Source of the DNA: an uncultured Veillonellaceae bacterium
Lineage (GTDB): Bacteria; Bacillota; Negativicutes; JARBTT01
Assembly (NCBI GenBank): GCA_963805085.1
Contig: CAWDTA010000005.1
Location: forward strand, 544,001-608,000
Length of the DNA stretch: 64,000 bases
Direction: 5' to 3'
Part shown: positions 6,141 to 41,964 of the stretch, piece after piece
Numbering within the stretch: the stretch's first letter is position 1
How the letters are laid out: every line of letters starts with the position of its first letter
The notes under the pieces: generated by a model
Seen by the model: the letters and a program-made list of their open reading frames with translations, nothing else
The model's database searches: none
What the model was told of the DNA's origin: nothing
Translations under genes and position numbers: made by a program

Positions 6141-6172
6141 GTCTAATAACAATAATAAGGGGGAATGTAATC

Positions 6173-9058: not shown

Positions 9059-9086
9059 AGGTTTATGAAAAGAGTAGGTGAGTTGA

Positions 9087-10445: not shown

Positions 10446-10458
10446 GAGTGAGCATAGT

Positions 10459-11226: not shown

Positions 11227-11256
11227 TTTTAAATTCCGGCAAGAGGAGGTCAAAAC

Positions 11257-12285: not shown

Positions 12286-12306
12286 AAAAATCATAGGTGA
12301 ATTTAG

Positions 12307-13086
12307 ATGAAATTATTATTACTGATGATTCAGTTTTTTACGCGGATACCCATTTCTATTCGAATGGAGGTGGAGGTTAACGAAAAAATATTTGGCAAGG
12401 CAATTATATGTTTACCGATTGTTGGACTCATCATCGGGAGCATAAATGTTGCTTTTTATAGCAGCTTATTGTTCTTTTTTTCAAGCCCCATTGCTGGCGT
12501 TCTAGTTGTTCTTGGTAATGCTTGTCTAACAGGTGCGTTTCATGTAGATGGACTTGCGGATACTTGTGATGGTATTTTTTCTGGCCGTAATAGAGAACGT
12601 GTTTTAGAAATCATGAAGGATAGTTGTATCGGCACCAATGGTGCATGCGCGATCGCTTTTGATTTTATGATTAGGGCAGCTTGCTTAGCTACTCTTAGTG
12701 AAAGTCATGTTATGCTTGCCATCATCGTAGCACCAATTATTTCACGTACGATGATAACGATCTTGATGCGTTCAACGTATGCAAGAGTAAATAAAGGCTT
12801 GGGGAGCCTTTTTATCGATAATGTAACGAAGAAAAATGTTTTGCTGACATTCTTGATTGGTAGTTTACTGGTGATGTCAGGTATGTTTTTTGCCGCTAAT
12901 GATAAAGGACTTTTACTAGGAATGATGCTAATGGTATTTAATCTAGTTATCATTTTTGGTTATAAAAAAATGATACTAACGGAAATTGGTGGGATGACTG
13001 GTGATACGTTAGGCGCAGGAAATGAAATTTGCGAAGTAGCAGTAGTATTGATGTTTGTAAGTCTGGAAAAGTTGGCGGTTTTATGA
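12307..13086 (+). CDS. cobS: Adenosylcobinamide-GDP ribazoletransferase (cobalamin synthase)
   Basis: QFFTRIP, TGAFHVDGLADTCDG, IMKDS, GGMTGDTLGA. Confidence 0.95.
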   Translation: MKLLLLMIQFFTRIPISIRMEVEVNEKIFGKAIICLPIVGLIIGSINVAFYSSLLFFFSSPIAGVLVVLGNACLTGAFHVDGLADTCDGIFSGRNRERVLEIMKDSCIGTNGACAIAFDFMIRAACLATLSESHVMLAIIVAPIISRTMITILMRSTYARVNKGLGSLFIDNVTKKNVLLTFLIGSLLVMSGMFFAANDKGLLLGMMLMVFNLVIIFGYKKMILTEIGGMTGDTLGAGNEICEVAVVLMFVSLEKLAVL

Positions 13087-13634
13087 CTACGATTTATATG
13101 GTAAGACATGGGGAAACAGACTTAAACAAACAAAAAGTTTATTTCGGTTGGAGCGATGTCGCATTGAATGCGGATGGCGTAGGGCAATGTCAGGAACTGA
13201 AGAAAAAGCTAGACGGGATTCACTTTGATGCAGTGGTTACAAGTCCGTTGAAAAGGACACTGCTTTCAGCTGAGATTATTCATGGGATGTTAGATGATCT
13301 TGTTATCTGTGAAGAATTAAAAGAGTTAAATTTTGGTGAATGGGAAGGCCTTCATTATACAGAAATTGAAAGAAATTATAAGGATCAATGGGAGCTGTGG
13401 AGTGCAGATTGGGTTAATTTTTGTATTCCCAAGGGAGAAAGTTTTGTTTTGTTATATCAGCGAGTGGAATCTTGCTTTTTAAAATTATTAGATAGATATC
13501 GTAATCAAGCTATTTTGATTGTTGGCCACGCTGGGGTGTTGAAAATTATTAGTTTGATAATACTGAATTTACCACTTGCAGAGTATTGGAATAGTTCTTT
13601 TGATTTTGGGACTTATACAGTTTTTGAAGTTTAA
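13083..13634 (+). CDS. cobC: Alpha-ribazole phosphatase (histidine phosphatase)
   Basis: RHGET, ELNFGEWEG, GES, H(AG); ATG overlaps cobS stop. Confidence 0.85.
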   Translation: MTTIYMVRHGETDLNKQKVYFGWSDVALNADGVGQCQELKKKLDGIHFDAVVTSPLKRTLLSAEIIHGMLDDLVICEELKELNFGEWEGLHYTEIERNYKDQWELWSADWVNFCIPKGESFVLLYQRVESCFLKLLDRYRNQAILIVGHAGVLKIISLIILNLPLAEYWNSSFDFGTYTVFEV

Positions 13635-19425: not shown

Positions 19426-19459
19426 TCATTGTGGTTAAATTTATAACCGGGGTGAGTTT

Positions 19460-20067
19460 ATGAATTATGTACCTATGGTAGTAGAACAGTCTAATCGCGG
19501 CGAACGCGCTTATGATATCTATTCCCGCTTATTAAAAGATCGTATCGTATTTATTGGTGGCCCAATTGATGATAATGTTGCAAATGTTGTTATTGCACAA
19601 TTGTTATTCTTAGAATCAGAAGATCCAGATAAAGATATACATTTATACATTAATAGCCCAGGGGGTGTAGTAACAGCTGGTCTTGCTATTTATGATACTA
19701 TGCAATACATAAAACCAGATGTTTCAACAATTTGCCTAGGGCAAGCAGCCAGTATGGGAGCATTGTTGTTAACAGCAGGTGCAAAGGGAAAACGATATGC
19801 ACTTCCATATGCTCGACATTATGATTCACCAGCCGTTAGGTGGGGCACAAGGACAGGCTACGGATATCCAGATTCAAGCCAAAGAAATACTCACGTTTAC
19901 GTGAAATTGGCAATGATATTTTAGTGAGCCACACTGGGCAACCACGTGAAAGAGTGCAAGCGGATACGGAGCGCGATTATTTCATGTCTAGTGAGCAAGC
20001 TAAAGAGTATGGTCTTATTGACGAAGTCATTACTCGTCCAGCTGATAAGACTGATAGCCCTAAATAG
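19460..20067 (+). pseudogene. clpP: ClpP protease, interrupted by two +1 frameshifts (about 19816 and 19893), probably sequence errors
   Basis: [19 protein letters not shown]; removing two bases restores [19 protein letters not shown]...ILRLRE...DTERDYFM. Confidence 0.85.
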
Positions 20068-20079
20068 AGAGGTGATAAC

Positions 20080-21341
20080 ATGTTAAAGTTTGGGGATGAA
20101 AAAGGTCAACTAAAATGTTCATTTTGTGGCAAAATTACAAGAACAAGTGAAAAAGATTAGTTGCAGGCCCTGGAGTTTATATTTGTGATGAATGTATAGA
20201 ACTTTGCAATGAAATAATTGAGGAAGAATTTAGTGGTGATGTCGAAGTCGAACTAAAGGAAGTTCCCAAACCAAAAGAAATTAAGGATATATTTAGATCA
20301 ATATGTGATTGGTCAAGATGCAGCAAAAAAAACTTTAGCAGTAGCAGTTTATAATCATTATAAAAGAATCAATATCGGCTCTAAAATAGATGATATAGAC
20401 TTGCAAAAAACTAATATTTTAATGCTGGGACCAACTGGTAGCGGTAAAACGTTACTTGCTCAAACTTTGGCAAGATCTTAAATGTACCTTTTGCAATTGC
20501 AGATGCTACTTCATTAACAGAAGCAGGGTATGTTGGAGAAGATGTTGAAAATATTCTTTTAAAATTAATTCAAGCTGCTGATTATGATGTAGAGAGAGCT
20601 GAAAAGGGTATTATCTATATTGATGAAATCGATAAAATTGCACGAAAATCAGAAAATCCTTCGATTACGAGAGATGTTTCTGGCGAAGGCGTACAACAAG
20701 CATTACTTAAAATCTTAGAAGGTACAGTTGCTAGTGTTCCTCCACAAGGTGGTAGAAAACACCCTCATCAAGAATTTATTCAAATTGATACTACAAATAT
20801 ATTATTTATTTGTGGTGGTGCTTTTGATGGTATTGAAAAGATCATTAGTGCACGTACTGGTACGAAAACATTAGGCTTTGGTGCTGAAATTAAGAGTAAA
20901 GACGAAAAGAAAATCGGAGAAGTTTTAAAATCCGTGCTTCCAGGTGATTTACTAAAAATCGGTTTAATTCCAGAGTTTGTTGGTCGTTTACCGGTGGTGG
21001 TAACACTAGATGCATTGGATGAATCTGCACTTGTTAGCATTTTAGTTAAACCGAAAAATGCTCTCGTGAAGCAATATCAGAAGTTCCTTGAAATGGATAA
21101 TGTGAAGCTTGAGTTTGATGATGAGGCACTGCAAGCAATTGCAAAAGAAGCTTTGAAACGCAATACTGGTGCACGTGGACTTAGGTCTATTATTGAATCA
21201 GTTATGTGTAATGTTATGTATGAAGTTCCATCGAGAACTGATGTGTCAAAATGCACCATAACAAAAGAAGCTGTTTTAAATAACGAAGAACCTCATTTGA
21301 CGACTGTTAAAACCAAAAATAAAAAAGAAGTATCTGCATAA
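20080..21341 (+). pseudogene. clpX: ClpX ATPase, interrupted by about four indels (about 20132, 20153, 20293, 20473), probably sequence errors
   Basis: [50 protein letters not shown], read across frame changes. Confidence 0.85.
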
Positions 21342-26388: not shown

Positions 26389-26841
26389 ATGTTAACAGCT
26401 TTTGATAAGGAATTGTTAAATATTCTACAAACAGAATTACCAATTAGTAAACGTCCTTTTGCTGATTTAGCGCAAGTTTTAGGAACGGATGAGACAGTAG
26501 TCATCAATCGATTAACAGAACTGAAAGAACAAGGTTATTTAAGAAGGATTGGTCCATTTTTTGATTCTACGAAACTTGGCTATGCTGGCACTCTGATTGC
26601 GACTAAGGTAACGGATGGCTATATGGAAAGTGTAGCCCGCGAAATCAATACATATCCTGGCGTTACGCATAATTATGAACGTGAAGGCGATTTTAATTTG
26701 TGGTTTACGTTACTCACACCTGATGTGGAAACTCAAGATAAGATTTTAGCCACCATACGTAATTTGCCTGGAGTTGAGAAGTTAATAAGTTTGAAGGCTA
26801 ACCGTAAGTATAAAGTTAGCGTTCAGTTTAAGTTGAAGTAG
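26389..26841 (+). CDS. ahbA: Siroheme decarboxylase subunit alpha (AsnC/Lrp-like)
   Basis: LQ..LP...RPF, LRRIG, GVTHNYER, NLWFT. Confidence 0.85.
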   Translation: MLTAFDKELLNILQTELPISKRPFADLAQVLGTDETVVINRLTELKEQGYLRRIGPFFDSTKLGYAGTLIATKVTDGYMESVAREINTYPGVTHNYEREGDFNLWFTLLTPDVETQDKILATIRNLPGVEKLISLKANRKYKVSVQFKLK

Positions 26842-26850
26842 GTGAAAGCA

Positions 26851-27321
26851 ATGGATGAATTAGATAAAAAAATAATAAGAGCTATGCAAGATGAATTTCC
26901 ATTGGTAGCAGAACCTTATCAAGTGTTAGCTAAGCAAATTGGCATTACACAAGAAGAACTCATTGAACGATTAAAAAGGTATAAACGGTCGGGCCAAATT
27001 CGCAAAATGGGGGCAGTACTTAGACATCGTGAAGTTGGGTATGCAGCTAACGCATTATGCGCGTGGGTAGTGCCAGAAAGTCGGCTAGAAGAAGTGGCAA
27101 CTTTGATGGCGACTAGTCCATCCATATCGCATTGTTATGATCGCAATACTATGCCTGGATGGCCGTATAACGTGTATACGATGATTCACGGACACAGTCG
27201 TGAAGAGTGTGAAGCAATAGCAAATAAAATTGCCGAGCAAAATAACTTAACGGAAAAAACAATGTTATATAGCTTAAAAGAATGGAAAAAAACAAGTATG
27301 CGTTATTTTTGTGAAGGATAA
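26851..27321 (+). CDS. ahbB: Siroheme decarboxylase subunit beta
   Basis: IRKMGAVLRHREVGY, SHCYDR, WPYNVYTMIH, KEWKKTSMRYF; alternative GTG 26842. Confidence 0.87.
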   Translation: MDELDKKIIRAMQDEFPLVAEPYQVLAKQIGITQEELIERLKRYKRSGQIRKMGAVLRHREVGYAANALCAWVVPESRLEEVATLMATSPSISHCYDRNTMPGWPYNVYTMIHGHSREECEAIANKIAEQNNLTEKTMLYSLKEWKKTSMRYFCEG

Positions 27322-28916: not shown

Positions 28917-30188
28917 ATGTGGATGATGAGTGATAGGGACATTAGTACAAATTTATTAGAAAGCTCTATAGAATATGGACTTGTTTATGTTGGTGATTAC
29001 ATAAGTGAAATGATTGGAAAATCAGTTTTAGTTGCTGATAATCGTGGTTATATGCATTATCCGGAAAAGTCTGTCATTAGTGATACTGATATTGAGTATT
29101 TGATAAGGACGATGCCACAGATAGAGGAAGACCAATATTATTATGAAAAAAACGAATCTATGCTCGTCTATCCGATTGGGAGAAATGATCTTAAAGCGTT
29201 GGTGCTTGTAAAAAATGTTTCTCAAGAAGAGATCATAACAGTTTTATCAATGCTGAGTTATGCGAAATTAGCGATTAAAAACTACATTCATAATGAGTTA
29301 AGTTTAGAAAATAAATTGGCAGCGTATCAAAGAAAATTTTTAGATACTATGTTTCTGAAAAATGAAGCAAATGTAAAAATAGTCTTAGAAAAAGCGGGCG
29401 TTTATTTAGATGTAAATCGTAAATATGCCATTGGATTAATTAAGTTACATGACCAGGAGGAAAAACTTGATTATCATAAAGTAAAGATGGATATGTTTGA
29501 ATATAGTCATAATGCAAATTTTGATCCATCAGGGCTAGTGTATTGGCATGGATTTTATGTATTTGTCGTTGGTGATAATAAATTAAAAGAGGATATGCCC
29601 AGTGAACCCATTTGGAAAAAGAAAGTTGAAGATAAATACAAAGTAAAGGTTGCAATTTCTTATGGGCGGTTTAAGACGATTGGTGATATGCAAAAAAGCT
29701 ATAATGAAGCAAGAGTTGCTATGACGTTTCAAACAAGCAACGCAAATCATTGTTTTGTTCAACGTTTTGACGATTTAGGGATTTATACAATGCTTTTTTC
29801 CCATGACTTTGAGCAATTAACAGAGTTTTGTATGAAAACAGTAGCGAAATTAATGGTACATGATAGTGAGTTTGATGCGGATTTGTTCATTACGCTACGG
29901 GCGTTACTTCAATGTAATTTCAATTTAAAATCGGCATCAGAACGATTGTTTGTACATGTAAATACGGTAAGATATCGCTATGAGCGAATTGAGCAGCTGC
30001 TAGAAATCAATTTATCTGATCCAGAAGAACGAACCAATTTGTATGTTGTCGTAAGAGTTGGTGCAATTTTAGAAGAACTCGGGTTTATGAAAAATTGTTA
30101 TATTGGTAATATCGTAGAAAATAATATAGCAGATAGTGAAAGTAAAATACGATATCCTCGATTCGGGACAAATTTAAAAATGATATAG
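28917..30188 (+). CDS. PucR/CdaR-family transcriptional regulator
   Basis: KSYNEARVA, FDDLGIY, C-terminal HTH (LFVHVNTVRYRYERIE). Confidence 0.9.
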   Translation: MWMMSDRDISTNLLESSIEYGLVYVGDYISEMIGKSVLVADNRGYMHYPEKSVISDTDIEYLIRTMPQIEEDQYYYEKNESMLVYPIGRNDLKALVLVKNVSQEEIITVLSMLSYAKLAIKNYIHNELSLENKLAAYQRKFLDTMFLKNEANVKIVLEKAGVYLDVNRKYAIGLIKLHDQEEKLDYHKVKMDMFEYSHNANFDPSGLVYWHGFYVFVVGDNKLKEDMPSEPIWKKKVEDKYKVKVAISYGRFKTIGDMQKSYNEARVAMTFQTSNANHCFVQRFDDLGIYTMLFSHDFEQLTEFCMKTVAKLMVHDSEFDADLFITLRALLQCNFNLKSASERLFVHVNTVRYRYERIEQLLEINLSDPEERTNLYVVVRVGAILEELGFMKNCYIGNIVENNIADSESKIRYPRFGTNLKMI

Positions 30189-30203
30189 TAGATTGACACA
30201 TGT

Positions 30204-30240
30204 AAAAGGGCAACTGTAGGTTATGCAGTTGCCCTTTTGT
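30204..30240 (+). terminator. Terminator after PucR gene
   Basis: AAAAGGGCAACTGTA...TGCAGTTGCCCTTTT. Confidence 0.85.
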
Positions 30241-30503
30241 CGTAATTTAAAAATAAAATAATAACAAATAGTTATACAATGTTATAAAAATATAAAAAAA
30301 TGTTATAATTTACTACAAAGCTTTTATAAAAATTAGAATCATATATTATAAAAATAAAATGAGATTGTATGAAACAATTAGCTTTTACTACAGTCAATGA
30401 ATAAAATAACTGTGTTTTTTCGTTAAAGTGATTGAAAAATAAAACAGATTATTTAAAATATTAAAAAATCTGCTTTGTTTCTCATATTCTACTGAATGGG
30501 TTT

Positions 30504-30771: not shown

Positions 30772-32601
30772 ATGGCGAAACAGATATCAAGACGTAGCTT
30801 TATTAAGGCCGGTGTAGCTGTTGGTGCAGCAGTTGCAGCCGGTACTTATTTTGAGTGGCAAGGAAACAATATCCCCGCTTCCGTAAAACAAGGTACAGCT
30901 CTATATGATGTATTGATTATCGGTAGTGGTGGCTCTGGGATGCGTGCAGCATTAGAAGCTGCAAAAGACAAAAATTTAAAGGTTGCAGTCGTAACTAAAA
31001 TGGTGCCAACTCGTTCGGCAACAACGATGGCGCAAGGTGGCATCAATGGTTGTGTAACAGATCCAGAAGATACACCAGAATCTCATGCATTCGACACGGT
31101 TAAAGGTGGCGACTATTTATGTGACCAAGACGCTGTAGAATATTTTGCTGAAAATGCTGGCGCTAGTTTACTTGAACTAGATTACTTTGGTTTTCCTTTT
31201 AATCGTCAGGAAAGTGGTGCATTTGATCAACGTAAAATGGGTGGTAGCTCCCATAAGCGTACTGCTTATTACGCTGACACATCTGGGCATGGGTTGCTAC
31301 ATGCATTGTTTGAACAATGCTTAGCAAACAATATAGAATTTATTTCTGAATGTCAAATGCTTGAAATTGTTGTAAAAGACGATAAATTAAGTGGTATCGT
31401 TGCGATCGATATGCGCAGTGGTAACATCCTTTCTATCCCAACCAAAGCACTTATTATAGCAACCGGCGGCTATGGCCGCGCTTACTGGATTCGTACGTCC
31501 AATCCATATAGTTCTACTGGTGACGGGATCGCGGCTTGTTTAAACATTGGTATTCCGTTCAAAGATCCGGAGATGGTACAGTTCCATCCAACTGGTCTTG
31601 CGAGTAATGGGGTATTGTTATCAGAGTCAAGTCGTTCAGAGGGAGCATTGCTCTTAGATAAAAACGGTGAACGTTTTATGGCCAGATATGCGCCGAAAGC
31701 AATGGAACTTGCAACACGTGACTTAGTCGCTCGGGCAATTGAAACAGAAATCAGTGAAGGCCGTGGTATTGGCGAAGGCTTAAATGCTGGTGTATATATG
31801 GACTTTACCCATATTCCTAAAGATCGTTTAATGGAACGTTTAGGACAAGTTTATGATTTATCTTTACGTTTTGAAGGTGTTGATATTACACAAAAACCAG
31901 TGCCTATTCGTTGTTCTTGCCATTATTCTATGGGTGGTATCGATGTAACGGATTATAAATCAGGCGGCACAAAAGTTCCTGGCGTATTTGCTACAGGCGA
32001 ATGCTCTTGTGTCTCTGTACATGGGGCAAATCGTTTAGGTGGTAACTCGTTAAGCGAAATAGTTTTATTCGGTAAAACAGCTGGTGCTGGCGCGACTACC
32101 TATGCAAAAAAAGCTGGCTATGTTGGCGATAAAGCTGCATTGACTGCATCGCTTGATAAATGGAATAAAAACTTCGAAGAAGTAACAAATAGAACAGCTG
32201 GTCCAAGGGTTGCAGAAATTCGTGATAAAATGGCAGCTGCAATGTGGTATAAAGCAGGGGTTTATCGTGAAGAAGCACAATTGCAAGAAGGGCTAAAAGA
32301 AATTGATTCTTTAATTCAAGAATATAAAAACTGTTACGTTGGTGATACGAGTAGAACTTATAATACAGCATTTATGAATTATATTGAAGTTGGCAATCTT
32401 CTGATGATATCCAAGGCAATTATTATGGGAGCAATTGCTCGGAAAGAAAGCCGTGGCGGTCATTCACGGAAAGATTTCCCAGAACGTGATGATAAAAACT
32501 TCTTAAAACATACGATTATTAGTAAGGTTGGCGATAAATTTACAACCGATTATCGTGACGTTGTTATTACGAAATATAAACCAGCAGAAAGGAAGTATTA
32601 A
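30772..32601 (+). CDS. Tat-exported fumarate reductase flavoprotein (MfrA/SdhA-like)
   Basis: SRRSFIK twin-arginine signal, GSGGSG FAD fold, RSATTMAQGG, QFHPT, ELATRD, HYSMGG, HGANRLGGNSL, ESRG. Confidence 0.9.
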   Translation: MAKQISRRSFIKAGVAVGAAVAAGTYFEWQGNNIPASVKQGTALYDVLIIGSGGSGMRAALEAAKDKNLKVAVVTKMVPTRSATTMAQGGINGCVTDPEDTPESHAFDTVKGGDYLCDQDAVEYFAENAGASLLELDYFGFPFNRQESGAFDQRKMGGSSHKRTAYYADTSGHGLLHALFEQCLANNIEFISECQMLEIVVKDDKLSGIVAIDMRSGNILSIPTKALIIATGGYGRAYWIRTSNPYSSTGDGIAACLNIGIPFKDPEMVQFHPTGLASNGVLLSESSRSEGALLLDKNGERFMARYAPKAMELATRDLVARAIETEISEGRGIGEGLNAGVYMDFTHIPKDRLMERLGQVYDLSLRFEGVDITQKPVPIRCSCHYSMGGIDVTDYKSGGTKVPGVFATGECSCVSVHGANRLGGNSLSEIVLFGKTAGAGATTYAKKAGYVGDKAALTASLDKWNKNFEEVTNRTAGPRVAEIRDKMAAAMWYKAGVYREEAQLQEGLKEIDSLIQEYKNCYVGDTSRTYNTAFMNYIEVGNLLMISKAIIMGAIARKESRGGHSRKDFPERDDKNFLKHTIISKVGDKFTTDYRDVVITKYKPAERKY

Positions 32602-32603
32602 TC

Positions 32604-33554
32604 ATGGCGGTTACTTTAAATATTCATCGTAAATTAGATGAAAAAAAATGGGTGCAGGAATATACGGTTGAACTTGAAAAAGGAATGACCATTTTAGCGG
32701 CATTAAACAAAATAAAAGAAACCATTGATCCGACCTTATCTTTTACAGCATCTTGTCGTTCTAGTATTTGTGGTGCTTGCGCTGTAAGGGTGAATGGTAA
32801 TGCAGAACTTGCTTGTGAAATATTGCTTGCTGATTTAATAAAACGTTATAAAACAGAAACGTTTACGATCGAGCCACTTGGTAATTTTAGAGTGATTCGT
32901 GATTTAATTGTGGATTGGGATCCTAAATATGAAAAAATGAAAAAGATTAAACCAGTGTTACAACCGAAGCACGAATTCAGTCCAGAAAAAGGTTGTAAAC
33001 AATCTATTGAGGATTTCAAAAAGTATAGTAAGTATGCAGAATGTATTTTATGTGGTTCTTGCGTCTCAGAATGTAATAAATCTACCGTAAATAATAAAGA
33101 TTTCTTGGATCCATTCATTTTTGTAAAAGCAGAGAAATTGGTTGCCGATTCTCGTGATAGAGAGCCAAAAGAACATTTACAAGCTGTTGTAAATGAAGGT
33201 TTGTGGAAATGTATGAATTGTCAGGAATGTACCACAAAATGTCCAAAAGGACTTGATCCTGCTGGGGCAATTGAAAAATTGTGTGAGGCAACCTTTAAAC
33301 TGGACTTATTAGGTAGCAGTGTTGGTTCAAATCATGCCAAAGCACTTTACGATGATATTTATAATACAGGTCGTTTAGATGAATCTAAGCTTTCCATTCA
33401 ATCTGAAGGTTTGGTATCAGCAGCGCTTCGGGCTCCTTTTGCAATGAGATTGATGAAAACTGGAAAATTAGATCCATTTGAAAAAGTACCAGTGAATCCA
33501 GAAATCAATAAAATTCGCGACATTTTAAATAACGCAAAGAAGGAGGAAAAATAA
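32604..33554 (+). CDS. Fumarate reductase iron-sulfur subunit (MfrB/SdhB-like, type E)
   Basis: CRSSICGAC..C; CILCGSCVSEC; CMNCQECTTKCP; C-terminal extension. Confidence 0.9.
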   Translation: MAVTLNIHRKLDEKKWVQEYTVELEKGMTILAALNKIKETIDPTLSFTASCRSSICGACAVRVNGNAELACEILLADLIKRYKTETFTIEPLGNFRVIRDLIVDWDPKYEKMKKIKPVLQPKHEFSPEKGCKQSIEDFKKYSKYAECILCGSCVSECNKSTVNNKDFLDPFIFVKAEKLVADSRDREPKEHLQAVVNEGLWKCMNCQECTTKCPKGLDPAGAIEKLCEATFKLDLLGSSVGSNHAKALYDDIYNTGRLDESKLSIQSEGLVSAALRAPFAMRLMKTGKLDPFEKVPVNPEINKIRDILNNAKKEEK

Positions 33555-34412
33555 ATGAAATATGCATTTTTCCCAGGCTGTGTATTAAAAGGCGCGGCAA
33601 AAGAAGCTTATATGGCAACTACAAAAGTTACTGAAAAATTAGGAATTGAACTTGTTGAAATTCCTAACTGGACTTGCTGTGGCGCATCACATGCACAAGG
33701 TGTTGACGAGTTAGCATTACTTGCAATCAATGCACGTAATATTGCAATTGCTGAACAAATGGGATTACCTGTTTTAACAGTATGTAATACTTGTACGCTT
33801 CAATTACGTCAAGCAAAAGCAAAACTAGATGGTGATGCAAAATTAAAAGCAAAAGTAAATGAAATTTTAGCGAAATCTGGCTATGAATATAAAGGAACTT
33901 CCGAAGTAACACATTTACTTTGGGTATTGGCATCAAATCCGCAAATTTTTGATGGTAAAATAACAAAACCATTAAAGGATTTAAAAGTTGCAGGATATTA
34001 TGGCTGTCATCTTGTACGTCCACCTAAAATCATGAATTATGAAGATGGAAGAAATCCTGAATCATTAGAAAAAGTAATTCGGTTACTTGGGGCAACCCCA
34101 GTAGAGTTTGATTACAAATTAAAATGCTGTGGTTTCCATGCCTTCTTTACTGCCGAAAGAGATGTGATGACAGTAACTGGGCAAGCTGTAGACAGCGCAG
34201 AAAAAGCTGGTGCTGATTTGATGGTTACTCCATGCCCACTTTGTCAGATGCAATTGGATATGTATCAACCAGAAGGACGAGCTGCAGTTAGGACAGCGAC
34301 AGAAATTCCTGTGCTTCATTTACCCCAATTGATTGGTTTAGCTATGGGAATGAGCAAGGAAGATATGGGTATTAACTACCATATTTCAGCAGTAGATAAA
34401 ATTAAAGGATAA
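33555..34412 (+). CDS. CCG-domain anchor subunit (SdhE/MfrE, HdrB-like)
   Basis: YAFFPGC, WTCCG, CNTC, YYGCH, CCG, PCPLCQ. Confidence 0.88.
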   Translation: MKYAFFPGCVLKGAAKEAYMATTKVTEKLGIELVEIPNWTCCGASHAQGVDELALLAINARNIAIAEQMGLPVLTVCNTCTLQLRQAKAKLDGDAKLKAKVNEILAKSGYEYKGTSEVTHLLWVLASNPQIFDGKITKPLKDLKVAGYYGCHLVRPPKIMNYEDGRNPESLEKVIRLLGATPVEFDYKLKCCGFHAFFTAERDVMTVTGQAVDSAEKAGADLMVTPCPLCQMQLDMYQPEGRAAVRTATEIPVLHLPQLIGLAMGMSKEDMGINYHISAVDKIKG

Positions 34413-34419
34413 TCTTTTC

Positions 34420-34453
34420 TTTGAGGACGAGGTTTTGCTCGTCCTCAAACTTT
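34420..34453 (+). terminator. Terminator after fumarate reductase operon
   Basis: TTTGAGGACGAG...CTCGTCCTCAAA. Confidence 0.75.
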
Positions 34454-34625
34454 AAATAAGTGATGAAAAATGCCAATATACTAAACTGAAGTTCTATATT
34501 ATTTTTCAAATGTATGAAAATGAGTTGCTTGGCAGATATTAAGAAAATAAACAAAGTTAAATCAGTGGATATTAATTGCTAAATAGTTTATTATAGTGTA
34601 AAATATTAAGAGATTTAGCTTGTAG

Positions 34626-35606
34626 GTGATAAATTTGTCGAAAAACTCAATGTTTAATATTGTGAAAAAAGATTTAGAAGTATTAGAAGAAGAAATGCTT
34701 TCAGTCATATATTCACCAATAGAATTAATTACGAATATAGGAACTCATTTAATAGAGGCGGGCGGAAAAAGATTGCGTCCAGCTCTTTATTTTTTGGCTA
34801 CGCGTTGCAAGGAAATAGAAGGCAAGAATTTGATGCCGCTTGCAGTAGCGATTGAAATGATTCATATGGCGACATTGGTGCATGATGATGTGATTGATAG
34901 TGCGGCGACCAGACGAGGAAATGCAACTGCCAATGCGAAGTGGGGCAATCAATTATCCATATTAAGTGGTGATTACTTATTTGCCAAAGCATTTTCCTTA
35001 GTTGCAAAGAACGGTTATAGTAGCCAGGTTATGGTTATTCTATCTGATATTATTTGTGATTTAAGTGAAGGTGAAATTATTCAAAATAAGGAAACGTTCA
35101 AAGCCTCAGAAGATAAGGTAGAATACTATGATCGTATTGCTAAGAAAACAGCTAATTTTATTGCGGCGAGTTGTCAACTTGGCGGAATTGTTACAGGTCT
35201 GAATGAGGAAGAAGTAGAGGCTTTGCGTGAATATGGGTATGCCATTGGTATGGCATTTCAAATTACGGACGATATCCTTGATTTAACTGCGACCTCTGCG
35301 CAAATTGGTAAGCCAGCAGGTAATGACATTTTACAAGGTATTGTGACGTTACCAGTGATTCATGCGCTTAGTGTGAGTCCTGATGCCGAAGAGTTGCGAA
35401 TGATCGTTACGACTCGCGACATGGACGAACAGCTGTTAAAGCGCGGGCTTGAAATCGTTCATGCAACGGATGCGATAGAATATTCTTATGCTAAAGTGAA
35501 AGAATACTTAGATAAAGCACGTAGCGTATTACCAAACTCTATTTCAGAAGAAATTAGAGAAACCTATGTAACTGTAGCAGATTTTATTGCGATGAGAGAA
35601 TTTTAG
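34626..35606 (+). CDS. Long-chain polyprenyl diphosphate synthase (HepT/IspB-like)
   Basis: GGKRLRP, HDDVID...RRG, KKTA, FQITDDILD; exact start uncertain. Confidence 0.92.
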   Translation: MINLSKNSMFNIVKKDLEVLEEEMLSVIYSPIELITNIGTHLIEAGGKRLRPALYFLATRCKEIEGKNLMPLAVAIEMIHMATLVHDDVIDSAATRRGNATANAKWGNQLSILSGDYLFAKAFSLVAKNGYSSQVMVILSDIICDLSEGEIIQNKETFKASEDKVEYYDRIAKKTANFIAASCQLGGIVTGLNEEEVEALREYGYAIGMAFQITDDILDLTATSAQIGKPAGNDILQGIVTLPVIHALSVSPDAEELRMIVTTRDMDEQLLKRGLEIVHATDAIEYSYAKVKEYLDKARSVLPNSISEEIRETYVTVADFIAMREF

Positions 35607-35654
35607 TTATTTTATTAAAATTTTTATAATTCTATATGATGGAGGTAGTTCATT

Positions 35655-35861
35655 ATGCATGGTATTGGTATTCCAGAAATACTTGTTGTTCTAGTTATTG
35701 GATTGGTTTTCTTTGGTCCAGGTAAGTTGCCTGAATTTGGTAAATCACTTGGCAATAGTATCAATGAATTTAAAAAAGCTCTTTCTGGAGAGACAAAGAG
35801 TAGTGAGCCAACAAAAACAGAAGTAACAAAAGACGAATCTAATAAAACAGAAGCAAAATAA
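35655..35861 (+). CDS. tatA: Twin-arginine translocase TatA
   Basis: GIPEILVVLVIGLVFFGPGKLPE...EFKKA; SD GGAGGT. Confidence 0.93.
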   Translation: MHGIGIPEILVVLVIGLVFFGPGKLPEFGKSLGNSINEFKKALSGETKSSEPTKTEVTKDESNKTEAK

Positions 35862-35881
35862 TTTAAATTAATTCTTTGTAA

Positions 35882-35917
35882 AATTGTCTTTGTTTATTAC
35901 AAGGACAATTTTTTATT
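35882..35917 (+). terminator. Terminator between the two tatA genes
   Basis: AATTGTCTTTGT...ACAAGGACAATT plus T tract. Confidence 0.6.
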
Positions 35918-35997
35918 ATATATATTTATGTTTCGTTGTGTTTTTATTAGTGAAATTGTATAATAGAATCAAATGTAGAAAGATGGAGGTTTTTATT

Positions 35998-36225
35998 ATG
36001 TTTGGTATTGGTATGCCTGAATTAATCTTAATTTTAATTATTGGTTTGGTGGTATTTGGTCCAGGAAAATTGCCAGAAGTGGGAAGAGCAGTAGGAAAAA
36101 GCTTGAATGAATTTAAAAAAGCTACTTCAGGAATTACGGGTAGCGATGAACAAGTAAATGTTACAAAAGCAGAAACAAAGAGTGAGCCAGTGAAAAGCGA
36201 ACCTACTAAGCCAGATGTGAAGTGA
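35998..36225 (+). CDS. tatA: Twin-arginine translocase TatA (second copy)
   Basis: MFGIGMPELILILIIGLVVFGPGKLPE; ATG 35998 after GGAGGT. Confidence 0.93.
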   Translation: MFGIGMPELILILIIGLVVFGPGKLPEVGRAVGKSLNEFKKATSGITGSDEQVNVTKAETKSEPVKSEPTKPDVK

Positions 36226-36235
36226 GGTTTGATTG

Positions 36236-37006
36236 ATGTCAGAAGAGACAACAGAGTCGACTTATGAAGATTATGTGGAGGATCATACGCCAAAACAGAT
36301 CGAAGAACAGCAGCGGGGCAACATGTCATTGCTTAAACACTTAGATGAATTAAGGACTAGATTAATTAGTTCATTCATTGCGATTGGTATTTGTAGTGCT
36401 ATTTCTTATTTTTTTGTAGAGGAAATCGTACATTTTATTACTGCCCCGGCGGGGAAATTATATTACATGCAACCAGCAGAGGCATTTTTTACTTTTTTAA
36501 AAGTGTCATTGTTTTCAGGCTTTTTAATGAGTTTACCAGTGATTGTGTATAATGTATGGGTATTTTTTTTACCAGCACTTACACCGAAAGAGAAAGCTAC
36601 GATTGGAATATTAGTACCGGCTTCGGTGCTTTTATTTTTTACAGGAATAGCATTTTCTTATTATTTTGTTTTACCGGCAGGAATTAAGTTTTTCTTAGGT
36701 TTTGCCAGTGCTGATTTGCAACCGTTACTTTCGATAGGAAAGTATTTAGATTTTGTAGTGGCATTTTTATTGCCGTTTGGTTTTATTTTTGAGTTACCAT
36801 TGGTCATTATGGTTTTAGCAAAAATTGGGTTAGTTACATCAGCTTTTTTGCGAAAACAAAGAAAGATGCTTATCTTTTTATCTTTTGTCATTGGAGCGGT
36901 AATATCGCCGACACCAGATATGTTTTCGCAAACGATGATCGCGGTGCCAATTATCTTGTTATATGAAATCAGTATTATTATTGTTAGATTTATTTTGAGA
37001 AAATAG
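36236..37006 (+). CDS. tatC: Twin-arginine translocase TatC
   Basis: HLDELRTRL, F..PAL...EK, FELP, SPTPD, LYE. Confidence 0.95.
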   Translation: MSEETTESTYEDYVEDHTPKQIEEQQRGNMSLLKHLDELRTRLISSFIAIGICSAISYFFVEEIVHFITAPAGKLYYMQPAEAFFTFLKVSLFSGFLMSLPVIVYNVWVFFLPALTPKEKATIGILVPASVLLFFTGIAFSYYFVLPAGIKFFLGFASADLQPLLSIGKYLDFVVAFLLPFGFIFELPLVIMVLAKIGLVTSAFLRKQRKMLIFLSFVIGAVISPTPDMFSQTMIAVPIILLYEISIIIVRFILRK

Positions 37007-37026
37007 TTGAGAGGAGCGCTTGAGGC

Positions 37027-38487
37027 GTGGCTTTTAAGGATCTAAGAGAATTTATCGAAGAATTGGATAATCGTGGTTTATTAAAACGTATTGCAACACC
37101 AGTTGATTGTGAATTAGAAATCACGGAAATTACGGATCGTGTTTCTAAAATGGAAGGCGATAAAAATATTGCATTATTATTTGAGAACGTAAAAGGCTAT
37201 GATATGCCTGTGCTTATGAATGCGTTTGGTAGCATGGAACGTATGGCAATTGCCTTTGGTGTAGAAAAAGTCGATGATATTGCCGATGAAATAAGAGAAA
37301 TTTTAAAGTTGCCTTATATTTCTCTGCAAAATAAATTAGATTTATTGAGTATTATTCCGACGGCAAAACGTGCCATTAATTTTCCTAAGTACGTGAAAAA
37401 TGCTCCTTGTAAAGAAGTCATCATCAAAGATCAACCTTCATTGGACAAGTTTCCAATTCTAAAATGTTGGCCGGATGATGGTGGTAAGTTCATTACGCTG
37501 CCATTGGTATTTACTAAAAATCCGAAAACTGGTAAACGTAATGTGGGGATGTATCGCCTGCAAAAATATGATGATAAAACGACTGGTATGCATTGGCATA
37601 TACATAAAAATGGTGCCGAAAACTTCCGCGATCACAAGGAATTGGGTAAAGATCGTATTGAAGTTGCCGTTGCGATTGGTACTGATCCAGTGTTAACGTA
37701 TGCAGCGACTGCACCACTACCACGTGATATTGATGAAATGGTATTCGCAGGGATGCTTCGTAAGAAGTCAGTGGAAATGATTAAATGTGAAACTGTAGAT
37801 GTTGAAGTACCAGCGCATTGTGAAATTGTCTTAGAAGGTTATGTAATGTTGGATGAATTGAGACGGGAAGGTCCATTTGGCGACCATACGGGTTATTATT
37901 CACTAGCGGATAATTATCCAGTATTCCACATTACTTGCATTACGCATCGCAAAAATCCAATTTATTTATCAACGATTGTTGGTAAACCGCCAATGGAGGA
38001 TTGTTATATTGCGAAAGCGACAGAACGGATTTTCTTACCGTTCTTACAAATGCAAATGCCTGAAATTGTCGATATGAATTTGCCTCTTGAAGGTGTATTT
38101 CATAACTGTGCAATGATTTCTATTAAGAAATCTTTCCCTCAACATGCAAAAAAAATAATGCATGCAGTCTGGGGCATGGGGCAAATGATGTTTACAAAAA
38201 TGATTATCATCGTAGATGAACACGTTGATGTACAAGATACAAAAGAGGTCTGGTGGCGTGTATTCAATAACATTGATGCAAGACGTGATATCGTCATGGT
38301 TGACGGACCACTTGATGTACTTGATCATTCTTCACCAATGCCAAATTGGGGAACAAAAGTCGGGATTGATGCTACGAAAACCTGGCCGTCAGAAGGAAAT
38401 CAGCGTGAATGGCCAGATGAAATAAAAATGACAGAAGATGTTAAAAAGATAGTTGATAGTAAGTGGAAGGAACTTGGTTTTGAGTAA
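37027..38487 (+). CDS. UbiD-family decarboxylase (futalosine-pathway MqnL-like)
   Basis: NVGMYRLQ, EGPFGDHTGYY, VGKPPMED, GIDATK. Confidence 0.88.
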   Translation: MAFKDLREFIEELDNRGLLKRIATPVDCELEITEITDRVSKMEGDKNIALLFENVKGYDMPVLMNAFGSMERMAIAFGVEKVDDIADEIREILKLPYISLQNKLDLLSIIPTAKRAINFPKYVKNAPCKEVIIKDQPSLDKFPILKCWPDDGGKFITLPLVFTKNPKTGKRNVGMYRLQKYDDKTTGMHWHIHKNGAENFRDHKELGKDRIEVAVAIGTDPVLTYAATAPLPRDIDEMVFAGMLRKKSVEMIKCETVDVEVPAHCEIVLEGYVMLDELRREGPFGDHTGYYSLADNYPVFHITCITHRKNPIYLSTIVGKPPMEDCYIAKATERIFLPFLQMQMPEIVDMNLPLEGVFHNCAMISIKKSFPQHAKKIMHAVWGMGQMMFTKMIIIVDEHVDVQDTKEVWWRVFNNIDARRDIVMVDGPLDVLDHSSPMPNWGTKVGIDATKTWPSEGNQREWPDEIKMTEDVKKIVDSKWKELGFE

Positions 38488-39328
38488 GTTATCAGCCCAC
38501 GTGAATAACATGGCCTTACATCATTCAGTTTTTGCATTACCGTTTGCTTATATGGGTGCATTTTTGGCAACTGATGGTATTCCTACTTGGTCAAATATTA
38601 TTTGGATTACGATTGCCATGATTGGCGCACGTAGTGCGGCTATGGCGTTAAATAATCTTATTGATTTAAAATATGATAAAATTCATCCGCGGTTTACAAA
38701 ACGTCCGATGGTGACAGGGGAAGTAAAACGCTGGGAAGCAATTGCCTTAATTGTTGTTAGTTTTCTTGTCTTTATTGTAGCGGCTTTACATTTAGCACCA
38801 ATTTGTGTAAAAGTTGCACCAATTGCAGTTTTTCCGTTTGTGATTTATCCTTATATGAAACGCATTACTCCTTATTGTCATTTGGTACTTGGATTAGCAT
38901 TAGCGATGGCACCAATTGGTGGCTGGGTTGCCGTAAAGAGCGAATTGTCTTTGCCGATTCTTTGTCTTGGCACTGCTGTTGCTGTTTGGATTGCAGGTTT
39001 TGATGTGATTTATGGTTGTCAAGATGTTGAGTTTGATAAAGAGCATGACCTAAATTCTATGGCAACTCGTTTTACGGTAGCAGGGGCACTGAAAATAGCC
39101 AAGCTGATGCATTTAATTAGCATTATTTGCTTTATCGCTGTTGGTGTGCTTTTAAATTTAACCTCAATTTATTATATTGGGGTTCTGATTGCGATGATTA
39201 CCCTTGTTTATCAACATTCGATTGTTAGTGCAAATGATCTATCAAGAGTAACACAAGTGTATTTTATGCGTAATGGTGTTGTTGGTATTTCCGTATTTCT
39301 ATTTACATTTGCAAGCCTTGTTTTGTAG
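38480..39328 (+). CDS. UbiA-family prenyltransferase (MqnP-like)
   Basis: HSVFALPF, ARSAAMALNNLID..D..HPR...RP, YPYMKR, GFDVIY..QD..FD; TTG 38480 overlaps ubiD stop. Confidence 0.88.
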   Translation: MSKLSAHVNNMALHHSVFALPFAYMGAFLATDGIPTWSNIIWITIAMIGARSAAMALNNLIDLKYDKIHPRFTKRPMVTGEVKRWEAIALIVVSFLVFIVAALHLAPICVKVAPIAVFPFVIYPYMKRITPYCHLVLGLALAMAPIGGWVAVKSELSLPILCLGTAVAVWIAGFDVIYGCQDVEFDKEHDLNSMATRFTVAGALKIAKLMHLISIICFIAVGVLLNLTSIYYIGVLIAMITLVYQHSIVSANDLSRVTQVYFMRNGVVGISVFLFTFASLVL

Positions 39329-39382
39329 TGCTACAGAAATATGTTGATAGCATACAACAATAAATGATGAGTGAGGTTAACT

Positions 39383-40246
39383 ATGACAGCTAGAGTATTA
39401 GAAGGCAAAGTGTTTGCCAATCAAATAAAAGAAACTGTAAAAAATGATATTGTAGCATTAAAAGAAGAATTTGGTGTGACACCTGGATTGGCTGTCATTA
39501 TCGTTGGTGAAAATCCAGCATCAAGAGTTTATGTTGCAAATAAGCATCGTTCTTGTGGTGATGTTGGGATGTATTCTGAAGTGATAGAAATGCCAGCGGA
39601 TAGCACCAAAGAACAATTGTTAAATAAAATTGCCGAGCTTAACCAATCTGAAAATATTCATGGCATCTTAGTTCAATTGCCGCTTCCAAAGCATATGCGT
39701 GCCGATGAAACAGAAATTTTGAATTTTATTGATCCTGACAAAGATGTTGATGGTTTTCATCCGGTGAATGTTGGTAAGTTATCCATCGGTCAAGAACATC
39801 TTGTGCCGTGTACTCCACTTGGCTGTATTAAAATGTTGGAGCTTGCTGGTATCGATGTTGCAGGTAAACATGCCGTGATCATCGGTCGGAGTAATATCGT
39901 TGGCAAACCAATGTTTAATTTACTATTATCGCGTAATGCTACGGTTACCGTATGTCATTCTTGGACGAAAGATTTAGCAAGTGTTACAAAAGAAGCGGAT
40001 CTTTTAGTGGTAGCAATTGGCAAGCCAAATTTTGTAACTGCTGAAATGATAAAACCAGGTGCAGTTGTTATTGATGTAGGGATTAATCGTATTGCCCCTA
40101 AAAAATTAGCCGGTGATGTTGATTTCGAACAGGTAAAAGAAGTGGCAGGTGCGATTACGCCAGTTCCTGGTGGTGTAGGTTTGCTTACAATTGCAATGCT
40201 GATGCATAATACGGTAAAAGCTGCGCGTATTCAATTAAGAAAATAA
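39383..40246 (+). CDS. folD: Methylene-THF dehydrogenase/cyclohydrolase
   Basis: YVANK, GILVQLPLP, KDVDGFHP, PCTP, GRSNIVGKP, PVPGGVG. Confidence 0.96.
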   Translation: MTARVLEGKVFANQIKETVKNDIVALKEEFGVTPGLAVIIVGENPASRVYVANKHRSCGDVGMYSEVIEMPADSTKEQLLNKIAELNQSENIHGILVQLPLPKHMRADETEILNFIDPDKDVDGFHPVNVGKLSIGQEHLVPCTPLGCIKMLELAGIDVAGKHAVIIGRSNIVGKPMFNLLLSRNATVTVCHSWTKDLASVTKEADLLVVAIGKPNFVTAEMIKPGAVVIDVGINRIAPKKLAGDVDFEQVKEVAGAITPVPGGVGLLTIAMLMHNTVKAARIQLRK

Positions 40247-40296
40247 TGATTTGTTTGAATCGTTTATAATTAAGCTTTATATTTAGGAGGGCCATT

Positions 40297-41964
40297 ATGA
40301 AAAGTGATGTTGAAATAGCGCAAGAGGCAGTGATTCAACCAATCATTGATATCGCCAAACAATTAGATATTCCCGAATCAGAACTAGAATTATATGGTCG
40401 TTATAAGACCAAAGTTTCTTTGTCTACATGGGAGCGTATCAAAGAAAATGAAAATGGTAAATTAATTTTAGTGAGTGCTATTAATCCAACTGCTGCAGGA
40501 GAAGGTAAAACTACTACTAGTGTGGGATTAAGTGACGCTCTTCGCAAAATTGGCAAGAAATCTATTGTTACGCTTCGTGAACCATCGCTTGGACCATGTT
40601 TCGGAATGAAAGGTGGCGCAGCTGGCGGTGGTTATGCGCAAGTTGTGCCAATGGAGGATATCAATCTTCATTTTACTGGTGATTTTCATGCGATTACTTC
40701 AGCTCATAATTTACTTGCAGCGGTAATTGATAATCACATGCAACAAGGGAATGAACTACAGATTGATAATCGTCGGATTACATGGCGGCGTGTTGTCGAC
40801 TTAAATGATCGTGCTTTACGTAATATTGTTTGTGGTATGGGTGGCAAGGCACATGGTATTCCACGGGAAACTGGTTTTGATATTACTGTAGCCTCAGAAA
40901 TGATGGCTATCCTTTGTTTAGCAAAAGATTTAGATGATATGAAAGAACGCATAGGTAAAATCATTGTTGCTTATACCTATGGCGGTAGACCAATTAGAGC
41001 AAAAGAATTAAATGTAACTGGTGCACTCACTTTGTTATTTAAAGATGCGATTAAGCCAAACTTAGTACAAACCTTAGAAGGTACGCCTGCCTTTGTTCAT
41101 GGTGGACCATTTGCCAATATTGCGCATGGTTGTAATAGTATTATGGCTACGAAATTCGCGCTTAAATTAGCCGATGTTGTCGTTACGGAAGCCGGCTTTG
41201 GGGCTGATCTTGGGGCTGAAAAGTTTCTAGATATCAAATGCCGTTTTGCTGGGATCAAGCCGGATGCGGTTGTTCTCGTAGCAACTGTACGCGCTTTAAA
41301 AATGCATGGTGGTATGGAAAAAACAGAACTTGGTACTGTTGATATGGCAGCGCTAGAAGCTGGACTCGCGAATTTAACAAAGCATATTGAAAATATGAAA
41401 AAATTTGGTTTGCCAACAGTTGTTGCCATTAATGCATTTCCTACAGATACTGAAGATGAATTGAAATTTGTAGAAGCAAAATGTAATGAAATGGGTGCAG
41501 AAGTTGCAATTTCTGAAGTATGGGCAAAAGGTGGCCTAGGCGGCGTAGACCTTGCGAAAAAAGTAATAGCGGCTACGGAAAAGCCAAGTAGTTTTCAATA
41601 TTTATATGATGTAGAGGCAACGATTGAAGAAAAAATTGAAATCATTGCCCGAGAAATATATGGTGCTGACGGTGTAGACTATACGGTAGCAGCTAAGAAA
41701 ACGATCAAAGAATTGACGGAACTTGGACTTACGAATACACCGATTTGTATGGCGAAGACACAATATTCGTTTACAGATGATCAAACAAAACTTGGCCGTC
41801 CAACTGACTTTAAAATTACAGTTCGTGAAATTAAGATTGCCGCTGGTGCAGGCTTTATTGTTGCAATGACTGGTAATATTTTAACAATGCCGGGATTACC
41901 AAAAGTTCCAGCAGCGGAAAAAATGAACATTACAAATGATGGAAAAATTACTGGCTTATTCTAA
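40297..41964 (+). CDS. fhs: Formate-tetrahydrofolate ligase
   Basis: [36 protein letters not shown]. Confidence 0.97.

Follow-up and report, generated by a model that had tools for sequence, protein, structure and literature searches.

In the genome of an uncultured Veillonellaceae bacterium (GenBank assembly GCA_963805085.1), we found three contiguous genes, mfrA, mfrB and mfrE, that probably encode a quinol:fumarate reductase of the type-E kind, that of the 8-methylmenaquinol:fumarate reductases (MFR) of Wolinella and Campylobacter. Judging from its sequence, the enzyme would be exported by the twin-arginine translocation (Tat) system and would work at the periplasmic face of the inner membrane. 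The genes lie in a stretch of 64,000 nucleotides, hereafter the window, which covers positions 544001-608000 of contig 5 (CAWDTA010000005.1) in a genome of 4.21 Mb, 37% G+C and 5 contigs. An earlier note on the window had placed nine genes at 30772-39328, and all nine were recovered at those positions, head to tail on the + strand. The first three make up the reductase:

30772..32601, + strand: mfrA (sdhA), flavoprotein with a 44-residue Tat leader and Ala83 at the position of the flavin adenine dinucleotide (FAD) histidine; NF042982 686.9 bits (cut-off 1100), TIGR01812 686.4 bits (cut-off 567.3)
32604..33554, + strand: mfrB (sdhB), iron-sulfur subunit that holds a 2Fe-2S motif and two complete CxxCxxCxxxC motifs, with Pro after the second of them; NF042952 321.9 bits (cut-off 600)
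33555..34412, + strand: mfrE (sdhE), monotopic anchor that has 10 Cys in a double CCG and lacks a predicted membrane helix; Pfam CCG 108.9 bits in 2 stretches, NF042965 353.5 bits (cut-off 500)

The gaps between the three genes are 2 and 0 nt. The start of mfrA is ATG 30772, which has AGGAGG 9 nt upstream; the GTG at 30763, with which the listed open reading frame (ORF) opens, falls inside that ribosome-binding site. The leader carries SRRSFIK at residues 6-12 and then a hydrophobic stretch, and 44 residues lie ahead of the FAD-binding YDVLIIGSGG. It passed the Pfam TAT_signal cut-off (25.2 bits against 22.7) and resembled the leaders of PhsA-like, FdnG-like and flavocytochrome-like proteins of the same genome. 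Because MfrA was the best (31.1 bits) of only 5 places matched by TAT_signal at E <= 0.1 in a six-frame scan of the 4.21 Mb, the leader is more than a chance resemblance.

At the FAD site, RSATTMAQGG carries Ala83. HMMER alignment with solved chains set 'ptrsattmaqgg' of MfrA against 'ptrshtgaaqgg' of Mycobacterium Sdh (6lum) and 'pmrshtvaaegg' of E. coli FrdA, so that Ala83 sits on the FAD histidine. QFHPT, ELATRD, HYSMGG and NRLG are all intact, and in the alignments they fall on the catalytic motifs of solved SdhA/FrdA chains, E. coli FrdA included. MfrB has its cysteines at 51/56/59/71, 147/150/153/157 and 203/206/209/213, with Pro after the last set; the second cluster motif is CILCGSCVSEC, and the third, CMNCQECTTKCP at residues 203-214, compares with CGNSQNCVQACP in the type-B SdhB of the same genome. 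MfrE has exactly 10 Cys, arranged as two CX(31/39)CCX34CXXC units, and its 19-residue hydropathy peaks at 1.1, leaving no hydrophobic segment. The SRRSFIK signal, the Ala, the four catalytic motifs, CxxCxxCxxxCP and the CCG anchor had all been listed in the earlier note, and all are present in the sequence.

Such features belong to a known kind of enzyme. Juhnke et al. 2009 (PMC2680327) describe four of them in SdhABE of Wolinella: the flavoprotein begins with some 40 extra residues that hold a twin-arginine motif, and export depends on Tat; Ala86 stands where the histidine would be, and FAD is bound non-covalently; the cysteine pattern of SdhB implies a second 4Fe-4S cluster; and the anchor, SdhE, has a 10-cysteine motif and lacks transmembrane helices. 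All four were found in mfrABE of the window. It shares with the MFR of Wolinella succinogenes and Campylobacter jejuni the A/B/E operon, a flavoprotein with a Tat leader about 40 residues long and with Ala at the FAD site, the 4Fe-4S-type third motif, a 10-Cys, two-CCG anchor without a membrane helix and membership of one histidine-less clade. It is unlike them in that its host is a Negativicute, its MfrA is 43-46% identical to theirs, the equivalog cut-offs were missed, a methyltransferase of the MqnK/MenK type was not found in the window genome, and mfrABE adjoins tat and mqn genes.

The alanine bears on the direction of the reaction. According to the same paper (PMC2680327), the enzymes of E. 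coli, yeast and Wolinella do not oxidise succinate when the covalent FAD bond is lost, and no succinate oxidation by Wolinella SdhABE was recorded. It is true that several sources name homologues 'succinate dehydrogenase' and that MfrA passed TIGR01812. However, a succinate:quinone oxidoreductase running in the oxidative direction, as the older name sdhABE would have it, is scarcely credible with Ala at the FAD histidine and in an organism that carries fermentative propionate genes.

Type-E succinate:quinone reductases that keep the His, such as archaeal SdhABEF of Sulfolobus/Acidianus, have in common with mfrABE the idea of a CCG-type anchor and the 4Fe-4S third cluster, both described for type E in PMC2680327 and PMC2754724. 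The sampled Campylobacterota forms of this kind, of 568-570 aa, keep the FAD histidine and have no leader, unlike MfrA of the window. Classical dihaem type-B quinol:fumarate and succinate:quinone reductases (Wolinella FrdCAB, Bacillus SdhCAB) belong to the same flavoprotein and iron-sulfur superfamily as MfrAB and have the same catalytic motifs, but they differ in being anchored by cytochrome b558, in keeping His at the FAD site, in their CxxxxxCxxxCP (3Fe-4S) motif and in lacking a leader. We rejected a classical type-B/C/D fumarate reductase or succinate dehydrogenase for mfrABE, which has no haem b or hydrophobic anchor, no His-bound FAD and no 3Fe-4S motif. L-aspartate oxidase (NadB) was also rejected for MfrA, which scored 365 bits on TIGR00551 against a cut-off of 452.75; the true nadB, at 503.6 bits on this model, lies in a nadA-nadB-nadC cluster on contig 2.

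The thiol:fumarate reductase TfrAB of methanogens also joins a flavoprotein with Fe-S and CCG modules. However, TfrB is one fused protein for B and CCG, and the donors are coenzyme M (CoM) and coenzyme B (CoB) thiols, whereas B and E are separate, unfused genes in the window; the scores were 473.2 against 718 for TfrA and 167 against 385 for TfrB, and TfrAB was rejected. This bears on the idea that MfrE is fed by a thiol or some other donor that is not a quinone, like relatives in thiol:fumarate or heterodisulfide reductases. The second-best family of MfrE was indeed HdrB (TIGR03288, 222.1 bits), and by hand count 24 of 113 MfrE relatives had HdrB as the sole match at E <= 1e-70, and 9 matched the MFR anchor model. 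These 113 were the proteins scanned with NCBIfam out of 150 listed by a search for MfrE representatives, 37 having been dropped (fragments, odd lengths, ranks after P0240). But the best match of MfrE itself was the MFR anchor, and the Wolinella enzyme (PMC2680327) had an activity below 0.01 U/mg with CoM-SH/CoB-SH. With the low Tfr scores and the unfused genes, this makes such a donor very unlikely, and a quinol:fumarate reductase remains the preferred reading. None of the 113 scanned MfrE relatives reached the NCBIfam cut-off of the MFR anchor, so this route yielded no bona fide MFR anchors; the cluster names of 10 of them pointed to relatives in Veillonella, Thermovibrio, Dehalococcoidia and Campylobacterota.

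For the phylogeny of the flavoprotein, we searched 251 genomes of Campylobacterota with the MFR flavoprotein model, and 60 passed its cut-off. Twelve of the 24 MFR loci returned entered the tree as stand-ins for the named Wolinella/Campylobacter sequences, the other 12 being near-identical. The His outgroup consisted of four 568-aa Campylobacterota forms and two of three Sulfurimonas type-E flavoproteins (L155 was left out), none with a leader; Sulfurimonas-type loci were the only kind among the best 80 of 359 related loci found with P0126 and were used for the Campylobacterota reference only. A quick tree of 41 rows included the type-B SdhA and the NadB of the same genome, and a careful tree of 39 rows was built with the leader columns removed. 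In both, the 33 histidine-less flavoproteins formed one clade (support 99 in the quick tree, 100/100 in the careful tree), made up of 13 leader-bearing Negativicutes, 12 Campylobacterota sequences over the MFR cut-off and 8 leaderless Negativicutes. The FAD-site residue was Ala in all 33 rows of this clade, including 12/12 bona fide MFR, and His in 6/6 outgroup rows. The leader-bearing Negativicutes were monophyletic (100/99), and so were the 12 MFR rows (100/100); identity of the window MfrA to the His forms was 41-44%. The MFR-type (type E) identity proposed in the earlier note is therefore borne out by the sequence hallmarks and by the grouping with bona fide Campylobacterota MFR flavoproteins. 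Of the phylogeny that it had recommended, our trees of Negativicutes and Campylobacterota sequences cover the A subunit, which falls with Campylobacterota MFR and, in the quick tree, apart from the type-B SdhA and NadB of its own genome.

The closest MfrA proteins in a large protein collection were, by their source names, all Negativicutes:

Massilibacillus sp. metagenome-assembled genome and Anaerosinus massiliensis: 81-82% identity
Sporomusa: 71-74% identity
Pelosinus and Azotosporobacter: 68-69% identity
Selenomonas and Mitsuokella: 65-67% identity
Sporolituus (shorter, 570 aa): 57% identity

Two Sporomusa records are already named '8-methylmenaquinol:fumarate reductase flavoprotein subunit'. 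Because lpxC is present in the window genome, a periplasm exists, and this gene together with the nearest named homologues agrees with the diderm Firmicute host that had been assumed earlier.

Among 301 genomes of the class of the window organism, an MfrE orthologue was found in 108 at E <= 1e-85 and an MfrA match in 112 at E <= 1e-160. By hand count, the match was leader-bearing in 39 genomes (alignment from query residue 1-4) and leaderless in 73 (alignment from residue 28-45), one of the latter, G688, being broken and ambiguous; genome G604 holds one copy of each form. We fetched 20 of the 110 places matched by MfrE, a non-random choice that spans 12 family codes. The A-B-E trio, CxxCxxCxxxCP, two CCG units and Ala at the FAD site were each seen in all 20. 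Twelve of these loci encode a leader of 39-47 residues with RRxF[IL]K, and the other eight are leaderless; the three loci fetched from family f4, where an MfrA-type gene occurs in 44/45 genomes, all belong to these eight. The leaderless SdhABE (families f4, f146, f167, f172 and part of f165) shares with the window enzyme the Ala, CxxCxxCxxxCP and two CCG units, and its flavoprotein is 52-57% identical to MfrA; unlike MfrA, it has 569-572 aa, no N-terminal extension and presumably a cytoplasmic location. Since the leaderless forms also have Ala, this residue is not tied to export in the class. The leaderless Ala-type SdhABE is an observation in its own right, being presumably a cytoplasmic fumarate reductase with non-covalent FAD. 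The presence of TatC does not split leader-bearing from leaderless lineages, as it was found in 260/301 genomes and in 45/45 of family f4.

These leaderless homologues, present in 73/301 genomes and the nearest non-exported relatives of MfrA, make one ask if the leader of MfrA could be vestigial or an uncleaved anchor, with the enzyme on the cytoplasmic side. Yet S/T-R-R-x-F-[LI]-K and the hydrophobic stretch were kept in 13/13 leader-bearing sequences, the window counted; the Pfam cut-off was passed, the Tat genes are intact, and the Wolinella homologue is Tat-exported (PMC2680327). We regard a vestigial leader as highly improbable, and an exported enzyme as the better explanation.

The electron donor was approached through the genes of quinone synthesis. 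The methyltransferases MqnK/MenK are HemN-like proteins (PMC10114718), and six signature motifs for them are tabulated in PMC10320005, which cites Wilkens et al. 2021; a preprint warns that menaquinone methyltransferase genes are hard to detect reliably. As a positive control, two MFR-bearing Campylobacterota genomes each had a HemN-like protein that passed NF006385 with 6/6 motifs. An MqnK/MenK-type methyltransferase was not found in the window genome, where no ORF had more than 2/6 motifs (HemW had 2, both generic, and every other ORF fewer) and the best NF006385 score, that of HemW, was 177 bits against a cut-off of 355. In the class, the NF006385 cut-off was passed in only 3/301 genomes, and that of the window was not among them. 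Pfam HemN_C was tried as another probe and gave one match, HemW; it was dropped, since it found only HemN in the two MFR-bearing control genomes. We also noted a second HemN-like radical-SAM protein (429 aa, contig 2, 1563968-1565257), directly 3' of an acyl-CoA ligase gene, with 0/6 motifs and scores below every NCBIfam cut-off.

The futalosine marker PF02621 had one match in the genome, and menA was not found in it. The neighbouring ubiD/ubiA pair reported in the earlier note is present and consists of late futalosine-pathway menaquinone genes (TIGR03701 640.7 bits, cut-off 495.9); these lookalikes at 37027-39328 are not ubiquinone genes. As an aside, a table in a review gives ubiquinone for Sporomusa species (PMC8578096), and this entry may merit a second look if it was based on such gene names. 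Because no MqnK/MenK-type methyltransferase was found, the donor is probably menaquinol or demethylmenaquinol. By this genomic proxy, futalosine-pathway menaquinol (or demethylmenaquinol) is the most likely donor, rather than the methylmenaquinol that had been proposed earlier. The absent methyltransferase also cautions against copying the name '8-methylmenaquinol:fumarate reductase' onto Negativicutes genes.

Several points weigh against an exported menaquinol:fumarate reductase of the MFR kind. The MFR model was the best NCBIfam family for each of the three subunits, but its equivalog cut-offs were missed by all three (686.9/1100, 321.9/600 and 353.5/500), while Campylobacterota members score 1119-1224 on NF042982. 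The match to the Wolinella/Campylobacter enzyme claimed in the earlier note consequently holds for the features and the clade and fails at the equivalog cut-offs. The window MfrA, at 43-46% identity to MFR, is closer (52-57%) to the leaderless and presumably cytoplasmic forms of Negativicutes. The union of leader-bearing and leaderless Negativicutes had a support of only 54/45, so the sisterhood of the two exported groups is not settled by the tree; a single clade of all exported forms was not rejected (p value of the approximately unbiased test 0.594), and the tree constrained to it beat the free search by 2.36 log-likelihood units. The tree thus did not decide whether the leader arose once or twice. 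In Table 3 of PMC2680327, Wolinella SdhABE showed 0.9 U/mg with an 8-methylmenaquinol analogue and 0.1 U/mg with the menaquinol analogue DMNH2, a difference of about ninefold, so activity with plain menaquinol is an assumption. Finally, the completeness of the genome is estimated at 83% and there are local frameshifts, for which reason absences are worded here as 'not found'.

From the observed gene content, motifs, clade and distribution we infer the export, direction, donor and topology of the enzyme as follows. MfrA would fold with non-covalent FAD, as Ala83 replaces the histidine, would join MfrB (2Fe-2S and two 4Fe-4S clusters) and would cross the inner membrane through the single TatA/TatA/TatC system by means of the SRRSFIK leader; MfrB and MfrE, with no leader of their own, probably ride along with it. 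MfrE, with its double CCG, would anchor the complex at the membrane surface and draw electrons from the quinol pool, and fumarate would be reduced to succinate in the periplasm, in the reductive direction only. Because the protons of the quinol would be released and those for fumarate consumed on the same side, the reductase itself would build no membrane potential. Any energy gain would come from donor enzymes, such as the predicted Tat-exported formate dehydrogenase.

We searched the genome for a second frdCAB, as had been suggested earlier, and found one. A type-B SdhCAB/FrdCAB lies on contig 5 at 359875-364035, where genes for a fumarate hydratase subunit, cytochrome b558, the flavoprotein and the iron-sulfur subunit stand together. 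This flavoprotein scored 950.7 bits on NF006392 (cut-off 855), has His at the FAD site and no leader, and the iron-sulfur subunit has CxxxxxCxxxCP. Since a cytoplasmic fumarate reductase is already present beside fumarase, the exported enzyme may serve another substrate, and the true one could be another enoate (mesaconate, crotonate or kin), with fumarate as a side substrate. Mfr of C. jejuni reportedly also reduces mesaconate and crotonate. However, all fumarate-binding and catalytic motifs of MfrA have their counterparts in E. coli FrdA, and fumarate reduction by the Wolinella homologue is on record (PMC2680327, Table 3). We consider this alternative unlikely, and fumarate remains the substrate that we favor.

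The type-B enzyme also bears on the supply of succinate. The propionate genes at 53.6-60.9 kb of the window encode a succinate CoA transferase, methylmalonyl-CoA mutase, MeaB, epimerase, carboxyltransferase and biotin carrier, and the earlier note had proposed that mfrABE could feed them. As periplasmic succinate would need import, the cytoplasmic type-B enzyme beside fumarase is a simpler source and the likelier supplier. Directly 3' of the methylmalonyl-CoA decarboxylase genes lies a permease of the IT superfamily (CitMHS/ArsB-like, 61442-62725), whose MamN/ArsB-type matches were sub-threshold; it could be a dicarboxylate carrier.

Around mfrABE we identified the following features:

28917..30188, + strand: PucR/CdaR-family regulator gene, 5' of mfrA; Pfam HTH_30 72.6 bits, NCBIfam AdeR/CdaR matches sub-threshold
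30200..30243, + strand: terminator-like hairpin with a UUUUG tail, 3' of the regulator gene; -26.0 kcal/mol, z -6.15, 0/200 shuffles equally stable
34421..34448, + strand: stable hairpin with a weak U tract, 9 nt past the mfrE stop; -20.6 kcal/mol, z -6.16, 0/200 shuffles equally stable
34626..35606, + strand: hepT-like gene for a long-chain polyprenyl diphosphate synthase, which opens a conserved block; Pfam polyprenyl_synt 239 bits, TIGR02748 299.4 bits (cut-off 456.55)
35655..35861, + strand: tatA copy 1; Pfam TatA_B_E 67.5 bits, NF011430 65.4 bits (cut-off 62)
35998..36225, + strand: tatA copy 2, 75 aa; NF011430 83.4 bits (cut-off 62)
36233..37006, + strand: tatC; TIGR00945 204.4 bits (cut-off 132.7)
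37027..38487, + strand: mqnL, UbiD-family futalosine-pathway menaquinone decarboxylase; TIGR03701 score as given above
38453..39328, + strand: mqnP-like gene for a UbiA-family prenyltransferase; TIGR01475 278.7 bits (cut-off 180.8), MqnP models 269-275 bits, below their cut-offs of 420-430
39371..41964, + strand: folD and fhs, which accompany the hepT-tat-mqn block in several relatives and do not belong to the reductase

The listed ORF of the second tatA opens at 35884, but ATG 35998 has GGAGG 8 nt upstream. The regulator is a candidate for the control of mfrABE; an amino-acid permease gene also lies upstream of mfrA. Both hairpins were found by reading the sequence, and the one between mfrE and hepT, possibly a leaky terminator that bounds mfrABE, was missed by a consensus terminator scan. 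The consensus scan for promoters and terminators was not above shuffled sequences: it gave 33 promoter-like sites where shuffles averaged 39.3, and 10 terminator-like sites where they gave 6.2.

The earlier note had regarded the tat genes as the translocase of this reductase and the whole cluster as a self-contained module. Our comparison of relatives does not agree with this. In 8 of 12 TatC-centred loci of relatives, which were picked, hepT-tatA-tatC-mqnL-mqnP was conserved, and half of these eight also carry folD-fhs at >=65% identity, one of them from a genus with MfrE in 0/11 genomes. Of 20 MfrE-centred loci, only 4 have mfrABE adjoining the block: L054 and L055 as in the window, L060 between two tatA copies, and L065 convergent after fhs. 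The TatC-centred locus L213 also has the window layout, and in L070 only fhs lies upstream of mfrA. The tatC gene is the one PF00902 match in the whole genome, and other proteins with a Tat motif are encoded there: a PhsA-like molybdoenzyme, an FdnG-like formate dehydrogenase, a flavocytochrome-c-like FAD protein and an unknown 386-aa protein. Since the block is conserved with and without mfrABE, tatC is single, at least three other Tat substrates are predicted and a hairpin separates mfrE from hepT, mfrABE does not come with a private translocase. It has the look of a unit of three genes next to a conserved housekeeping block, beside whose tat and mqn genes it was probably inserted, perhaps with read-through.

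The block itself deserves a remark, as the tat genes sit within a menaquinone-biosynthesis block, hepT-tatA(-tatA)-tatC-mqnL-mqnP, often followed by folD-fhs. The flavocytochrome-c-like FAD protein (587 aa, contig 5, 105452-107215, - strand) has a twin-arginine leader that ends in LLLSGC and is lipoprotein-like; its best match was vinyl phenol reductase, far below the cut-off, and it is a candidate periplasmic enoate-type reductase. Elsewhere in the window, two adjacent genes for siroheme decarboxylases of the NirD/L-like (AhbA/AhbB) type at 26389-27321 suggest an alternative haem pathway. At 6125-13634, genes for the cobalamin lower ligand (cobT-like, cobS and a phosphatase) come after an ethanolamine permease-like gene, eutA, eutB and eutC. 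At 19439-21341, clpP (at least 3 pieces) and clpX (at least 4 pieces) are split over several reading frames; either these essential genes are broken or the assembly has local indel errors, which fits the estimated completeness of 83%.

The type of enzyme in the window is already known; the side findings are the leaderless sister form, the methyltransferase that was not found and the conserved tat-mqn block. To our knowledge, Wolinella and Campylobacter are the only sources of a characterised exported MFR. In the literature that we searched, we found no study of an exported MFR in Negativicutes, only work on Campylobacterota and unrelated papers; the supplementary notes on fumarate reductases in Quinella (PMC9585023), which were outside our reach, may treat a similar enzyme. 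It is tempting, though somewhat short of probable, to suggest that Negativicutes have two topological versions of one histidine-less type-E enzyme, which differ essentially by a leader of 40 residues: a leaderless cytoplasmic one (73/301 genomes, including nearly all of one small-genome family) and a Tat-exported one (39/301) that would run on ordinary menaquinol, with one genome holding both.

If this is true, periplasmic fumarate respiration would be common in propionate- and acetate-forming diderm Firmicutes, and the leader-bearing and leaderless pair would be a natural experiment on the way in which a respiratory complex changes its side of the membrane. Having such sisters side by side gives a clean system for asking what the export of a complex requires. 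If the enzyme is exported, several Negativicutes of the rumen, gut and sediment (Selenomonas, Mitsuokella, Sporomusa and Pelosinus have named homologues) could use external fumarate for respiration with no need to take it up, and this would bear on models of succinate and propionate formation.

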